From: Promethearchaeota archaeon
Lineage (GTDB): Archaea; Asgardarchaeota; Lokiarchaeia; Sigyniarchaeales; SOKP01
NCBI GenBank assembly: GCA_048940925.1
Contig: JBHLOC010000004.1
Coordinates: forward strand, 64,001 to 128,000
Direction of reading: 5' to 3'
DNA length: 64,000 nt
The position numbers were made by a program, and so were the translations under genes. The notes under the pieces are model-generated. The model saw only the letters and a program-made list of their open reading frames with translations. It did not search any database and had not been told where the DNA came from. Shown here piece by piece: positions 49,923-55,924 of the stretch. Positions within the stretch are counted from its first letter, which is position 1, and every line of letters starts with the position of its first letter.

Positions 49923-51191
49923 TTAAGTGCCTTCTTCGTAACCGTGGATGTAATTATATTGTTCTTCCGTTAGTTTGTCAATCTCGACACCCATCGCCTG
50001 CAACTTAAGAAATCCAACTTCGTCGTCAATATGAGCAGGTATTTCAATCATTCCAGGCTTAAGTGAATCTTTATTTTTAACTATGAACTCAGACATTAAC
50101 GATTGGAGCGCAAAAGACATATCCATCACTTCACTTGGATGTCCTTCTGACAACACAAGATTAGCTAATCGTCCTTTAGCCAATAAATAGACTTTCTTTC
50201 CTGAGGGAAATGTTAGTTCTTCCACATCTTTCCTTATGGGCTTTATTTCTTTAGAATATTCATATAACTCCTTTGTGGGTATCTCGATATCAAAGTGCCC
50301 AAGATTACCCAGAATGACATCATCTTTAAGTTTATCGAACATTTCCTTTGTTGGAGCAATTACATGTTTGCAACCTGTTGCCGTAAGAATGATATCTGCT
50401 TCAGGAATTGCCTTTGCGATAGGTTTTACTTGATATCCAGCAAATTTCGCTTGAAGAGCTTTAATTGGATCAACTTCTGTTACAATTACATTTGCACCTA
50501 ACCCACGAGCTCTCAACGCCATCCCGCTACTGCAATGACCGTATCCGCATATCAGACAAGCCTTACCTGCAAACAAAACATGCATCCCATAAATAGCCGA
50601 AACTATCCCTTGTCCTGTTCCTAATTCGTTGTCAAATTGATTTTTACATCGAGCATCATTTACAGGAAATAAGGGTACTTTTAAAACACTCTTTTTTTCC
50701 ATCGCTCTGAACCTTTTAACCCCAGTTGTCGTTTCTTCTTGACATGCTATTATTGTTCCGGATGAGATAAGATCCTGATACTCCTGATGTGCCGTGACAA
50801 TCATATCGCCACCATCATCAATTAAGATATTTGGTTTACCATCTAAACACTGTCTTATACACCAATAGAATTCCTCATCTGTATTACCACGCCACGCGAA
50901 TACATTTATTCCTTCCTGAACCAGAGCTGCTGCAACATCATCTTGAGTAGACAGAGGATTACTTCCACATAAATATACATCAGCACCTCCAATTTTTAAA
51001 GTACGTGCTAAATTGCCTGTTTCTTTTGTAATATGGAGACAACCTGCAATTGTGATACCTTTTAGTGGTTTTTCTTCAGCAAAACGATCTCTCAGGATTT
51101 TCGCAGTTACAGGCATTTTATTTTCTGCAATATATAGGGCTTCCTTTCCTTTTTCTACTAAACTTTCGTCAGCAACTTTATAATTTACCAT
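49923..51191 (-). CDS. ahcY: S-adenosylhomocysteine hydrolase
   Basis: CLHIT, SNPLSTQD, DDGGD, EETTTGV, K..FDN, GHFD.EI, GHPSEVMDMSF. Confidence 0.96.
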   Translation of the reverse strand: MVNYKVADESLVEKGKEALYIAENKMPVTAKILRDRFAEEKPLKGITIAGCLHITKETGNLARTLKIGGADVYLCGSNPLSTQDDVAAALVQEGINVFAWRGNTDEEFYWCIRQCLDGKPNILIDDGGDMIVTAHQEYQDLISSGTIIACQEETTTGVKRFRAMEKKSVLKVPLFPVNDARCKNQFDNELGTGQGIVSAIYGMHVLFAGKACLICGYGHCSSGMALRARGLGANVIVTEVDPIKALQAKFAGYQVKPIAKAIPEADIILTATGCKHVIAPTKEMFDKLKDDVILGNLGHFDIEIPTKELYEYSKEIKPIRKDVEELTFPSGKKVYLLAKGRLANLVLSEGHPSEVMDMSFALQSLMSEFIVKNKDSLKPGMIEIPAHIDDEVGFLKLQAMGVEIDKLTEEQYNYIHGYEEGT

Positions 51192-51304
51192 TTAAATTCA
51201 CTTATATGATTTTATAATTTATAATTTTAATTAATTAATAAAGCTATTTTTGGTGAAATGCAAATATTTTTATAATAAATTATACATATAATTAATATTT
51301 CCAA

Positions 51305-52633
51305 ATGAAAATGCAAAATTGTAATATTATGAATGATAAAAAAGATAGGCTAGAAATCCGACATTTTATAAAAAATTTAAGTGGAAAATCCAAATTCGTT
51401 ATTTCAAAAAAGTCCCGTGCGATAGGTATTTCTAGACAAACCTATCAAAACAAACTTGATAATTTAAGGAATCGAAAAATAATTACTAATTTCACAATTA
51501 ATATCAATCCTAATCTTAAACCAAATAATCTAAAATATGTCATGCTTGAAATAAAAACTAACCCAAAAGAACCTGAACTTGTTGAACAATTGCTGAAAAT
51601 CCCTCAAATAACAATGTTAAATGGTATTTTTGGAGAGTTTTCTCTATTTGCCTTATTTATCTTTAAATCCCCCGAGGAATATTATCAGATATTAAATAAT
51701 ATTGATAAGATTATGGCACGATCATATTTCAAAAAATATCAGATCATTGAAACTATAAAGGTGTTTAAAACAAATGGAATTAGCTTAAGAAGCTTAAATA
51801 TGAGTTACGAAGAACAATTCGTAGAACAATTAAATTGCATAATGAAACAGAAAAAAGATTATGAAACTAATTCAGATTCTACAATTGAGAATATTGAATT
51901 AAAACTTGCAGAAAAAGTTGATTTAAATCAAATTAGTCGAAATTATATGGATATTGAGTATAATCCTAAGAAATTTCCGGGTATCCTTATTAAGATTGAA
52001 AAATTTAACATAACTATTTTAATTTTTTCAAGTGGAAAAATAGTTGTAACAGGTTTAAGAGAAACACAGGACACAGAGAAGGTAATAAATGAGATAATAA
52101 AAACTATGAGGAAGTTTGGGATAAATTTAGATAAGAAAACAATCGATCTAAATCTTAAAATAGATAATATTGATTATGAAATATTACAAATTTTACGTGA
52201 TCAGCAAGGAGATAAACCAATATCTACATATGAAATAAAATCAATCTTTAAGGAACAATTTAGTAATGATATTTCACAATCAACAATCCATAATAGAATT
52301 AAGAACCTTGAAAGCCAAAATATAATTCTTAATTACACGATTAATTTCTCTCCAAAAGAATTAGGGTATAAAGGTAAATTTATACTCCGAATAAAACCAA
52401 AAAATCCATCTAAATACAATGAACTTGCCTTCAAATTAGAAAATAACAAAAACATCACTGATCTTTTTCGAATAGGCGAACAGTATGGCTTATTAGCTAT
52501 TGTTCGTGTAAAGAAAATAGAGGATTATGGAAATTTTTTAAGAGAACTTTATCTAACAGAGGAAATTGAAGATACTTTTACTCATTTCGTTTTAGATGAA
52601 TTAATCAAATATACTAATTTTTTAATTTTTTAA
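51305..52633 (+). CDS. tandem Lrp/AsnC regulator with a central single TBP repeat
   Basis: two HTH+RAM units (about aa 10-160 and 285-440) flank aa 193-272 IENI..L..KVDL...EYNPKKFPG......LIFSSGKIVVTG. Confidence 0.85.
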   Translation: MKMQNCNIMNDKKDRLEIRHFIKNLSGKSKFVISKKSRAIGISRQTYQNKLDNLRNRKIITNFTININPNLKPNNLKYVMLEIKTNPKEPELVEQLLKIPQITMLNGIFGEFSLFALFIFKSPEEYYQILNNIDKIMARSYFKKYQIIETIKVFKTNGISLRSLNMSYEEQFVEQLNCIMKQKKDYETNSDSTIENIELKLAEKVDLNQISRNYMDIEYNPKKFPGILIKIEKFNITILIFSSGKIVVTGLRETQDTEKVINEIIKTMRKFGINLDKKTIDLNLKIDNIDYEILQILRDQQGDKPISTYEIKSIFKEQFSNDISQSTIHNRIKNLESQNIILNYTINFSPKELGYKGKFILRIKPKNPSKYNELAFKLENNKNITDLFRIGEQYGLLAIVRVKKIEDYGNFLRELYLTEEIEDTFTHFVLDELIKYTNFLIF

Positions 52634-52755
52634 GAAAACAAGCTTTCAATGATAAAATAATTTCTGAGGAGTAAATTCTTAATAATCTTAGAAAATTTCA
52701 ATAAATTAGAAATAAAAAAAAATCTTCACCAAAAATATCGTATATATTGAAAGGT

Positions 52756-54837
52756 ATGAATTTTTTCTTTGAATTAAAAGCCAGTAGAATAGGTTATTCA
52801 AGAATAGGGCGGATATCATTATCGAAAGATCGGAAGCTTTATATAAATACTCCGAATTTAATGATTCCTATAAAGAATTCGTTAATGAAACAGTTTAGTT
52901 TTATACAAGAATTCGAAAGTCATAAACTCTTTATCATTTCAAAAGAGATATTTTTAAGAATTGGATTTCTTCGTGAAAAGTTTAAAGACACAGGATTTAT
53001 TTTTTCTTATAATGGGACTTTTGAGAAATTTGAAGATATTTTAATACGAAATTTAGATATCTTCACTGAAGACAATATCATTTCAATATTACCATTTAAT
53101 GTTCCTACAACTTCTATTAATAAAGATTTTGCAGAAGTAGAAATAACTGCATATCTTAAAAAGGCTAAAAAGATCTTAAAACAATATCCAAATCTTAATT
53201 TTGGTATAACCATTAGAATTTTTGATTATACTGAATTGTTTGATCTCTATATTCCGATTATAAAAAAGAATGAAAATATTAAAATTCTAAACCTATCTGA
53301 CATTTTTGATAATTTCAACAATTTTAGAGGTATTGCAAAAATTATATCTGAAGTTAAAGCTGAATTGGATAATAATCTTGTTGTAATGGCTTCAGGTAGG
53401 ATAATTCCTAAATTATATCCTATTTTAGTATATTTAGGAATTGATTTAATTGATAGCTCCTTTTTATTATATTTATCAGCTGAAAATTTCTACGACACAA
53501 TAGAGTATCTTCTGCCAATATATAAAGTTAGGTATTTTCCCTGTGCCTGTGTGGCATGTAAAGGAAAATTGAAGAATCTTTTTGACATTAAACATTCTTC
53601 TGAAAAAATAGATTTATTATGTCTTCATAATCTCATATCAGCAACTAATTACATTAATAAAATTAGCCAATATTTAAACTATGAAGATTACAGAACATTT
53701 GTTGAAAAATCTACCTTTGATGATACCAATTTAATCTCAATTCTAAAAATTTTAGATAAAGACTATTTTCATTTAATGAGATATGAAACACCGATAACTA
53801 TTAAAAACAGAACTATTAGATGCCTTGGACCAACTTCATATAACCGCCCAGATTTTCGAGAATACAGAGAAAGAACTTTAACTAATTTTGGACCTGAACC
53901 ATGGACTACTTTAATTATCTTACTTCCATGCTCAGCTAAAAAACCTTATTCTGAATCTAAATCTCATAAGTTATTTTATAAAAAAATAAGAAAATTTTCA
54001 GAATTTCCAAATTTCCAAGAATTTATTCTAACTTCTCCTTTAGGGGTGATTCCAAGACAACTTGAAAACATTTATCCTGTTAATTCGTATGATATTTCAG
54101 TTACAGGTGATTGGAATAATGAAGAAATAAATATCACAGCTAATATGCTTATAAAAATATTAGAAAAATACAATAATGATATTCCGATAATTTGTCATCT
54201 TAAAGATGAATATTATGAGATTGTTAAAAGAGTTAAATCTAAATTAGCTCATAAATTCTTTTTTACCACAGTTTCAGATAAATTAACCTCAAAAGAATCT
54301 CTTCAATCATTAGAAGATTTAATTAATGAATATAAAGATATCTTTAAATCCAAACAGCAATTAAAGAAAGGAAATTGCTTAACTAAATCGTGGATTAGAA
54401 AATTTAATAAAATTTTAGATTATCAATTTGGTATTGGTTCAGGAATGAGAGTGATTTCACAAGAATTAACACAAATCAAACTTAAGTCTAATGGAAATGT
54501 TAATTTAATAGATAAAAAAAGCAAGGTATTATTGGGTATTTTCAGATCATCTACGGGTCAAATTGATTTAACACTTAAGGGAATTAATCGATTAGTAAAA
54601 ACACCTTATTCTATAGATTCAAATACAATTGTATTTGATGCAAATTTTATCAGAGGTAATACACTATTTCGAAAGGGCATAATAGCTTTCAGTCGAAATT
54701 TAATTCCAAATAATTTTACATATGTATTAAATAAAGATAAGAACGATATAATTGGAACTGGAAATTTATTAGTAGGGTCGAATTTTATAAAAAATTCTAA
54801 GACTGGGAGAGTAGTAAAAATCAATGATAAAAAATAG
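52756..54837 (+). CDS. arcS: archaeosine synthase subunit (TGT-like, DUF5591 and PUA-like domains)
   Basis: SRIGRI...TPN, LVYLGIDLID, LLPCSAKKPYSESKSH, TSPLGVIPR.LE..YP...YDI.VTGDW, DYQFG. Confidence 0.88.
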   Translation: MNFFFELKASRIGYSRIGRISLSKDRKLYINTPNLMIPIKNSLMKQFSFIQEFESHKLFIISKEIFLRIGFLREKFKDTGFIFSYNGTFEKFEDILIRNLDIFTEDNIISILPFNVPTTSINKDFAEVEITAYLKKAKKILKQYPNLNFGITIRIFDYTELFDLYIPIIKKNENIKILNLSDIFDNFNNFRGIAKIISEVKAELDNNLVVMASGRIIPKLYPILVYLGIDLIDSSFLLYLSAENFYDTIEYLLPIYKVRYFPCACVACKGKLKNLFDIKHSSEKIDLLCLHNLISATNYINKISQYLNYEDYRTFVEKSTFDDTNLISILKILDKDYFHLMRYETPITIKNRTIRCLGPTSYNRPDFREYRERTLTNFGPEPWTTLIILLPCSAKKPYSESKSHKLFYKKIRKFSEFPNFQEFILTSPLGVIPRQLENIYPVNSYDISVTGDWNNEEINITANMLIKILEKYNNDIPIICHLKDEYYEIVKRVKSKLAHKFFFTTVSDKLTSKESLQSLEDLINEYKDIFKSKQQLKKGNCLTKSWIRKFNKILDYQFGIGSGMRVISQELTQIKLKSNGNVNLIDKKSKVLLGIFRSSTGQIDLTLKGINRLVKTPYSIDSNTIVFDANFIRGNTLFRKGIIAFSRNLIPNNFTYVLNKDKNDIIGTGNLLVGSNFIKNSKTGRVVKINDKK

Positions 54838-55924
54838 GAATTTAAAAGAATATAATGAAATTGTTGCAGAAAAAGTTAAATTTTTCAGAGAAAAAGCTCT
54901 AAAAAATAAAAAAAAATATGAGAAAGAGCAACTGAGTCAACCTGTTGCATTTTGGATAAAAAAGGACAGATTAATTAACGAAATAGGAAAGCAATTTACA
55001 ATTATACTAAGAACCAAAGGATGTAGTTGGTCACTAAGTAAAACTGGAGGGTGTACGATGTGTGGATATATAAATGATGCAAATATTGATGACATTGAGC
55101 AATCTCAAGTTATAAATCAATTCATTTATGCAATTAACTCTAAAATGAGCGAAATAGAAGAAGATCATGATAAATTTATTTTAAAAATATTTAATTCGGG
55201 AAGCTTTTTCGATGAAAAAGAGATCTCTGAAGTAGTTAGGAGAACTATTTATGAAAAAATCGCAGGAATCAAAAGCATTAAAGAAGTTGTCTTAGAAAGT
55301 AGATTAGAATATATTACTACAGAAATCCTTTCTGAGATAAGAGAATTTCTAAAAGATAAATATGTTGAGATTGCAATTGGACTTGAAACTGTGAATGATT
55401 ATATTAGAAATAATTATATTAATAAGGGATTTCTCTATGAAAATTTTAAAGAAGTATGTAATGAATGTAAAGGGTTTGATATAGGTATAAAAGCTTATTT
55501 ATTATTTAAACCACCATTTCTTAATGAACAAGCTGCTATAGATGATTGTGTAAATTCAATTAGAAATCTTATTGAGCAAGATATTAATACGATTTCGATT
55601 AATCCCTTAAACATTCAAAAAGGTACTCTAGTGGAATATCTATGGTATCAAAATAGATATAGACCTCCGTGGTATTATTCCTTATTTAAATGTTTAAAAA
55701 AATCACTTACCCAAAAAGATTTAGAAAAAGTCCGAATACTATCTGATCCGAGTGGAGCTGGAACGAGGAGAGGGATACATAATTGTTTGAAAAAGGAATG
55801 TGAGAATTCTGCAAAGCAAATGCTTAGTAATTTTGTTCTCTCTCAAAATTTATCTGAGTTGAAACAAAATGGATTTGAGTGTAATTGTAAAAGCAAATAT
55901 CAATTAGAGAAAAATTATTGTTGA
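54824..55924 (+). CDS. raSEA: archaeosine biosynthesis radical SAM enzyme
   Basis: ILRTKGCSW....GCTMCGY, KIFNSGSF, AYLLFKPPFL, YRPPW, RGIHNC; overlaps arcS. Confidence 0.92.
   Translation: MIKNRNLKEYNEIVAEKVKFFREKALKNKKKYEKEQLSQPVAFWIKKDRLINEIGKQFTIILRTKGCSWSLSKTGGCTMCGYINDANIDDIEQSQVINQFIYAINSKMSEIEEDHDKFILKIFNSGSFFDEKEISEVVRRTIYEKIAGIKSIKEVVLESRLEYITTEILSEIREFLKDKYVEIAIGLETVNDYIRNNYINKGFLYENFKEVCNECKGFDIGIKAYLLFKPPFLNEQAAIDDCVNSIRNLIEQDINTISINPLNIQKGTLVEYLWYQNRYRPPWYYSLFKCLKKSLTQKDLEKVRILSDPSGAGTRRGIHNCLKKECENSAKQMLSNFVLSQNLSELKQNGFECNCKSKYQLEKNYC

Follow-up and report, generated by a model that had tools for sequence, protein, structure and literature searches.

Why should a gene-specific transcriptional regulator carry half of a TATA-binding protein (TBP)? 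The question is raised by an open reading frame of 442 amino acids on the plus strand (51305-52633) of a 64,000-nucleotide stretch of DNA from a Promethearchaeota archaeon (assembly GCA_048940925.1, contig JBHLOC010000004.1, positions 64,001 to 128,000), which is the window analysed here. Its product is laid out as a helix-turn-helix (HTH) and a RAM domain, a linker helix, one TBP repeat, and a second HTH and RAM domain. The architecture is real and, as far as our searches reach, undescribed. The description that suits the protein best is that of a tandem Lrp/AsnC regulator acting on the ahcY/arcS-raSEA locus, in which a captured N-terminal lobe (N-lobe) of the lineage's own TBP is an optional accessory.

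Domain architecture and distribution

The single TBP repeat (amino acids 194-274; 51884..52126, +), referred to below as the lobe, was matched by the Pfam model PF00352 over amino acids 199-271 (E 6.6e-20; 71 bits versus a gathering score of 22.9) and by the TBP models of NCBIfam over amino acids 190-289. Its top sequence match in the PDB, found with phmmer, was the TBP of S. acidocaldarius (1mp9; amino acids 194-279, E 2.8e-25). Foldseek aligned an AlphaFold2 (AF2) model of the protein with 1mp9_A over 88 columns, with a root-mean-square deviation (rmsd) of 3.4 and 42% identity, and VIA gave Z-scores of 8.1-8.6 against TBP; the predicted local distance difference test (pLDDT) values of the lobe are about 73-86. 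The profile match above the gathering score, together with the helix-grip fold, places the repeat in the TBP-domain superfamily. Only one PF00352 stretch is present, versus two lobes in the canonical TBPs of this genome, so that the regulator is not itself a two-lobe TBP.

The flanking Lrp/AsnC unit 1 (amino acids 12-162; 51338..51790, +) and unit 2 (amino acids 284-436; 52154..52612, +) each consist of an N-terminal winged HTH (wHTH) followed by a beta-alpha-beta-beta-alpha-beta RAM domain. PF01037 (Lrp/AsnC RAM) was found twice in the reading frame, and the Lrp/LysM/AsnC models of NCBIfam matched both halves, NF053758 covering amino acids 12-132 of unit 1 with E 8e-15. Among PDB sequences, amino acids 282-431 resemble PH1519/FL11 (E 1e-11), and amino acids 19-133 gave weaker Lrp matches such as 7fby (E 1e-3) and 9w4v. 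Lrp structures were also matched by Foldseek, and by VIA with Z-scores of 10-11 (rmsd 3.4-4.3 for unit 2). Unit 1 is near-invariant across 103 orthologues, and the recognition helices of the two units are unlike each other while each is near-invariant (SRQTYQNKL versus SQSTIHNRIK). The initial annotation, which had recognised two Lrp/AsnC units split by one TBP repeat, is confirmed by Pfam, NCBIfam, PDB sequences, Foldseek and VIA alike, and the profile scan that it had proposed (PF00352, AsnC HTH/RAM) matched the lobe and both Lrp units. Between unit 1 and the lobe lies a linker helix (amino acids 166-192; 51800..51880, +; helix 168-186 in the AF2 model), which the alignments mark as part of the inserted cassette and which is missing in about one quarter of the lobe-bearing orthologues.

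Translation probably starts at M9 (ATG at 51329) and not at the first ATG at 51305 used initially, because in six orthologues an in-frame TAA lies close to the M9-equivalent ATG on its 5' side and the database gene call is 434 amino acids long; the gene would then occupy 51329..52633 (+). The stretch between the two ATGs (ATGAAAATGCAAAATTGTAATATT, 51305-51328) shows DNA-level conservation, as TTTGCAAAATTGTAAT, even in orthologues with the in-frame stop, which makes it a non-coding leader or operator element rather than coding sequence.

More than 100 database proteins of 400-443 amino acids share the architecture at 57-82% identity, under the names "Lrp/AsnC ligand binding domain-containing protein" or "hypothetical". 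The frames are intact in 36 species genomes and 103 database orthologues, and a 3018-nt contig from sequencing runs of other studies covers the whole gene with three differences, being near-identical and maybe related to the source of this DNA. A chimeric assembly, which the initial annotation had named as a possible source of error, is ruled out by the species genomes, the database proteins and this contig, which spans the junctions. A literature search for Asgard, TBP and Lrp/AsnC fusions, with most subscription journals outside its coverage, found no description of the architecture, which had been equally unfamiliar at the time of annotation. In sediment run X9, several contigs of relatives match the gene up to the end of unit 1 (51784-51790) and then diverge, which suggests that relatives with a different linker/lobe region co-occur in the same habitat.

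We scanned 400 genomes of the phylum at E <= 1e-40 for lobe-bearing and lobe-less members of the protein family. A member was present in 124 of the 134 genomes of one GTDB family, versus none of the 266 genomes of 32 other GTDB families; two single-contig genomes of the same order are among those that lack it. The regulator is single-copy per genome. Judged by open-frame lengths, the lobe is carried by at least 37 of 125 genomes (24 of the window's genus, 10 of genus g12 and 3 elsewhere). The lobe-less orthologues, carried by about 88 of the 125 genomes, are tandem Lrp-Lrp proteins of 309-351 amino acids, with 8-14 residues between RAM1 and HTH2. That these might be paralogues is ruled out by the one copy per genome and the same synteny. 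The search for versions with and without the insert that had been envisaged across Asgard genomes thus yields both forms, confined to one GTDB family and not Asgard-wide.

Origin, loss and constraint of the lobe

The genome encodes two canonical two-lobe TBPs, one of which, TBP1, lies on contig C8. The insert shares 46% identity (94.8 bits) with the first repeat of TBP1 versus 29% (25.5 bits) with the second, and the family consensus of the lobe, EKIDLNQIA..N.DIEYNPEKFPGLV.KIE, is closely like the TBP1 N-lobe. In a lobe tree, which has 85 columns only and is weakly resolved, the inserts, the N-lobes of the family's canonical TBPs and the lobe from another fusion protein described below cluster together within the N-lobe group (SH-aLRT 91). 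These sequence comparisons trace the inserted lobe to the N-lobe of the TBP that the lineage itself encodes.

A further tree was built on the Lrp columns only, with 36 lobe-bearing and 27 lobe-less species representatives. It was rooted on distant tandem Lrp-Lrp proteins without a lobe, from metagenome-assembled genomes labelled Helarchaeota, Hodarchaeota and Bathyarchaeota, whose occurrence there makes the tandem Lrp scaffold the older and broader element. The basal lineages are without the lobe, and all lobe-bearing proteins fall into one clade (SH-aLRT 96) with three lobe-less clades nested inside; on this rooted topology the lobe was therefore gained once and lost at least three times. An earlier tree from a database sample, in which lobe-bearing forms are over-represented, shows the same nesting. 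The Lrp-column tree follows the genus labels loosely, which may reflect transfer or the rooting. Two database orthologues look like snapshots of lobe loss: P0034 (372 amino acids) retains the linker helix, S1 and the start of H1 with the lobe core gone, and P0093 (343 amino acids) retains the linker helix alone.

Selection differs markedly along the protein. The ratio of non-synonymous to synonymous change (dN/dS), summed over 315 pairs with dS of 0.05-1.2 that are not independent of one another, is 0.09 for Lrp unit 1, 0.12 for unit 2, 0.28 for the linker and 0.41 for the lobe, which evolves about four times faster than the Lrp units. Ten non-overlapping sister pairs, hand-picked from the pair table, gave lobe values of 0.15-0.71, always below 1. 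Neither stops nor frameshifts were found in the lobe across the 36 species and 103 database sequences. For the same genome pairs, dN is 0.01-0.06 in the canonical TBP1 N-lobe versus 0.08-0.42 in the insert. These rates indicate that the lobe is under purifying selection, with most of the constraint of TBP gone.

The residues that persist were counted over 103 family members, using the DNA-contact set N69, V71, F99, A101, L114, F116, V122 and T124 in yeast numbering (PMC12529657). The S2-S4 equivalents are mostly kept: F224 in all 103 members, G226 in 98, L/I239 in 87, F241 in 88, V/I247 in 88 and T/S249 in 64. F241 corresponds to the L5.1 Phe (PMC7221094). G244 is invariant (103/103), and basic residues are retained at positions 223 (K/R, 100/103) and 230 (K/R, 85/103).

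A second single-lobe TBP fusion of 508 amino acids is encoded in the same genome (L006:1486-3012, +; contig C40 of G000, at about 184.4 kb). Here PF00352 (E 1.6e-18) is followed by a Ras-family GTPase domain (PF00071, E 1.4e-35) and an ArsR/MarR-type wHTH, and the lobe of this TBP-Ras-wHTH protein clusters with the family's N-lobes. Directly 5' of TBP1, on the same strand of contig C8, is the gene of a 175-residue Ras-like small GTPase (L001:378-905, with TBP1 at L001:1144-1806); this pair could have been the raw material for the TBP-Ras fusion, the domain order being reversed there. A PF00352 scan of five related genomes (G225, G182, G195, G191 and G237) revealed TBP-lobe frames of no further kind. 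Additional long proteins that gave TBP hits (P0149, P0184, P0226 and others) were rejected as candidates, nine of the ten checked being TBPs of two to four repeats with extensions and no other Pfam domain. In P0266 the only TBP repeat is C-terminal and is preceded by about 225 residues without a Pfam match.

The locus and its divergent spacer

The regulator gene is divergent from ahcY (S-adenosylhomocysteine hydrolase; 49923..51191, -; PF05221, PF00670). This arrangement was found in 28 of 29 lobe-bearing loci in one set, the exception (L041) being a sequence that begins inside the regulator gene, and in all 62 loci that reach the 5' side of the regulator, a set that mixes lobe-bearing and lobe-less forms. 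On the 3' side are two genes of archaeosine tRNA modification (52747..55924, +), an arcS-like gene (696 amino acids) and raSEA (366 amino acids), which overlap by 14 nt (54824-54837). The ArcS-like protein, whose N-terminal part is TGT-like, scores 294 bits with NF040592, under the cut-off of 440, and RaSEA scores 338 bits with TIGR01210, over the cut-off of 212. A Gar1-like open reading frame and tfb are located further downstream. The arcS-raSEA pair follows the regulator in all eight loci checked, in either lobe state, and tfb comes next in seven, the eighth region ending too early to show it. The co-oriented run ending in tfb had been noted from the start; since it is the same with or without the lobe, the tfb neighbourhood is ancestral and not linked to the lobe.

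With the start at M9, the spacer between ahcY and the regulator (51192..51328) measures 137 bp and not about 113 bp as first given. An alignment of 63 orthologous spacers shows that it is strongly conserved family-wide, although the proteins are only about 65% identical. To judge from its distance to the ahcY ATG, Box 1 (AATTTTAATTAATTAATAAAG, 51223..51243) probably serves, on the minus strand, as the core promoter of ahcY. It is followed by TGCAAA at -70 and a TATA-like octamer at -62 (51259..51276, +), and by Box 2 (51280..51296, +), which in the window reads TTATACATATAATTAAT and in the family as a whole TTAACATTTAATTAAT, at -49 to -34 from the ATG. A second TGCAAA (51312..51317, +) lies at -17, 53 bp from the first and within the leader TTTGCAAAATTGTAAT; the pair is found in the clade that gained the lobe. 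The octamer is fixed at -62 in 30 of 36 lobe-bearing, 7 of 11 secondarily lobe-less and none of 16 basal lobe-less loci. The asymmetry of this conserved spacer is a fitting counterpart to the two differing, near-invariant recognition helices.

The palindrome AATTATACATATAATT to which the initial annotation had drawn attention is indeed present at 51278-51293. It is ruled out as the operator, being a local variant confined to the window where orthologues read the non-palindromic TTAACATTTAATTAAT. Its exact form occurs once in the genome, and four matches with up to two mismatches were found versus 1.0 expected. In a genome search for the spacer motif TGGTNRRNKGCAAAT, the locus itself was the only AT-rich exact match; the one-mismatch matches (51 versus 18 in the reversed control) are too unspecific to name targets.

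Possible roles of the lobe and comparison with known systems

We picture the regulator as a single-chain "pseudo-dimer" of two unlike Lrp/AsnC units (wHTH and RAM twice), which most likely binds the asymmetric 137-bp spacer shared with ahcY. From this site it would adjust the expression of ahcY and of its own gene run, which includes arcS-raSEA, according to a small ligand, for which the gene context offers S-adenosylhomocysteine (SAH), S-adenosylmethionine (SAM), homocysteine, methionine and lysine as candidates. In one ancestor of a single Loki-type family, a cassette comprising the linker helix and the N-terminal lobe of the cell's own TBP entered the short RAM1-HTH2 loop. The lobe retains its fold, and purifying selection maintains it as an accessory. 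As a half-saddle it could grip AT-rich DNA in the minor groove beside the TATA-like boxes in the promoter region of the regulator itself, and so tune occupancy, bending or competition with TBP, without nucleating a pre-initiation complex. DNA contact by the lobe, the target genes and ligand control are what we infer. We would give about an even chance to the lobe being such an accessory half-saddle, whose most likely partner is AT-rich DNA of the regulator's own promoter region. Because the lobe is optional and fast-evolving, a supporting contact with DNA or protein is in any case likelier than a private replacement for TBP. The occlusion of TATA boxes by the protein, acting as a repressor, was raised with the initial annotation and might also occur.

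Several observations weigh against an accessory DNA contact. At least three losses of the lobe took place while the gene, its synteny and the spacer motifs stayed. When identical genome pairs are compared, the lobe has accumulated 7-10 times as much non-synonymous change as the canonical N-lobe. S1 falls four residues short of its counterpart in the host TBP, and its N-terminal half is absent in 27 of the 103 family members. The S1 equivalent of N69 is Asn in 38 and deleted in 27. Of the residues singled out initially, N196, F224 (of FPG), F241 (of IFSSGK) and VVTG are all present in this protein, but the Asn of ENI is not general to the family. The V71 equivalent is Glu in 49 of 103, and position 200 is Glu or Asp in 68, so that acidic side chains would face the DNA. 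The AF2 models are not confident in placing the lobe relative to the Lrp units (pLDDT 70.9 and predicted template modelling score, pTM, 0.56 with a 32-sequence alignment; 63.3 and 0.36 with 103 sequences), and the position of the lobe can therefore not be read from them. Finally, the association of the lobe with the TATA-like octamer at -62 is a single phylogenetic event and therefore carries little weight; we treat it as a lead and not as a test.

Ptr2-type Lrp activators act by recruiting TBP, and the lobe might accordingly be a protein-protein module, which docks TBP, TFB, another factor or the Lrp units, or drives higher-order assembly; in that case the Lrp-TBP contact of such activators would have its "Rosetta stone" in the fusion. 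The acidic S1 residues on the concave face suit a protein or DNA-mimic surface better than DNA binding, the exposed Phe residues are conserved, and the same type of lobe occurs on the TBP-Ras-wHTH protein. Against this, the lobe varies most in its convex-face helices, where many partners of TBP make contact, and it is optional. On the whole we regard the module as unlikely.

That the lobe is a tolerated passenger or spacer in a permissive loop, drifting out and with no specific binding, appears rather improbable. Such a passenger would be at home in what is an 8-14-residue loop in the lobe-less forms, and the three or more independent losses, the partial-deletion alleles P0034 and P0093, the variable length of S1 and the linker helix, and a dN/dS higher than anywhere else in the protein would all be expected of it. 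Yet that dN/dS of 0.41 is clearly below 1, as is the value in every independent pair looked at. Fold-defining or exposed residues are kept (F224 and G244 in 103/103, F241 in 88/103), neither the 36 species nor the 103 database sequences interrupt the frame, and proteins that have diverged to about 60% identity still carry the lobe.

Whether the lobe could work as part of a saddle depends on its partner surfaces. The glutamates that contact TFB/TFIIB, C.L3.2 and C.L3.4, are a signature of the C-lobe (PMC7221094). In the present protein L3.2 is N220 (Asn in 81 and Asp in 16, hence N/D in 97 of the 103 family members) and L3.4 is K222 (Glu in 57, Lys in 15 and Gln in 15), and the lobe does not carry the TFB-contacting glutamates of a C-lobe. 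The host TBP reads YNPERFPG in its N-lobe and YEPEVFPG in its C-lobe; being of N-lobe ancestry, the inserted lobe would never have had these glutamates. The "charge-reversed stirrup" of the initial annotation is not supported, as K222 is a minority state and the C-lobe was the wrong comparator. S1 occupies the middle of the saddle in TBP and adjoins the other lobe, so that the seam of any rebuilt saddle would be the least conserved part of the lobe. When two copies of the lobe (amino acids 190-284) were modelled as a complex the score was 0.01, which counts neither for nor against pairing.

A working half-saddle, in the assembled oligomer either paired with a second lobe or seated on the TATA-like box at -62 beside Lrp operators, is very doubtful. 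Lrp proteins oligomerise, and it was originally proposed that oligomerisation pairs two half-TBPs into a full saddle on TATA, which would replace TBP at specific promoters under ligand control. The mostly kept intercalating Phe positions, the TATA-like boxes in the gene's own spacer and the stand-alone single-lobe TBP-domain proteins of some archaea (PMC3597702) speak for it, but we would be greatly surprised if it proved correct, given an N-lobe-derived lobe without TFB-contact glutamates (L3.2 N/D in 97/103), so that a homodimeric saddle would have no known route of TFB recruitment, an S1 seam that is its most degraded part, relaxed constraint with fast evolution, and close relatives with the same promoter region that dispense with the lobe.

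TBP is among the most constrained proteins of archaea and eukaryotes, and how it evolved from a single lobe is a question of long standing. In the present case a lobe of a living TBP was copied into a gene-specific regulator and, in the same genome, onto a Ras-like/wHTH protein as well; in the regulator it has come under much weaker constraint and has been lost several times among close relatives. The ancestral lobe-less, lobe-bearing, secondarily lobe-less and partially deleted forms, all with the same promoter region, offer a natural series in which the function of a lone lobe can be studied. The protein is also a likely regulator of the SAH hydrolase/archaeosine cluster in an uncultured Loki-type family. 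The narrow distribution and the optional lobe limit the reach of the finding. Were the lobe a working half-saddle, a gene-specific regulator would itself sit on a TATA box or pass it on, and would represent a natural intermediate between general and gene-specific factors in a lineage closely related to eukaryotes.

Lrp/AsnC regulators dimerise through their RAM domains and build higher oligomers that wrap DNA, and small molecules (amino acids) bind at the RAM interface. Compared with the archaeal Lrp/AsnC regulators (PH1519/FL11, 2cyy and 2e1c; P. furiosus LrpA, 1i1g; LysM; Ptr2), each half of the protein has the same wHTH and RAM, and the gene and a metabolic gene point away from each other on either side of a conserved spacer, as is usual in Lrp autoregulation. 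It is unlike them in that two non-identical units are joined in one chain with a TBP lobe between; we know of no solved or described Lrp protein with a TBP lobe between two fused units. The fused tandem AsnC-like protein NirDL (4ch7/4czc) and the AhbA/B siroheme decarboxylases also combine two Lrp/AsnC-like units, in a single chain or as a heterodimer. NirDL, however, is an enzyme with no inserted domain, and VIA matched both halves of the regulator to it with Z-scores of 9.6-10.1 over 243-254 residues at an rmsd of 9.3-9.5 A, so that the arrangement is only loosely alike; this match is the one hint on how the units might dimerise.

TBP-domain fusions with glycosylases, RNase HIII, adaptins and COPG were described by Brindefalk et al. 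in 2013, in a text from which the words Lrp, AsnC and helix-turn-helix are absent (PMC3597702). The monopartite TBP-domain proteins of Euryarchaeota (halobacterial TbpA and a Thermococcales group) resemble the lobe in being a single lobe outside canonical TBP, but they stand alone (PMC3597702). Beside TBP itself (1mp9; P. woesei, 1pcz/1ais; yeast, 1ytb; and the host's TBP1), the lobe is a true repeat that keeps FPG and the L5.1 Phe. Unlike TBP, it is one lobe with a degraded S1 and without the C-lobe glutamates, embedded in another protein, optional, and evolving 7-10 times faster than the canonical N-lobe.

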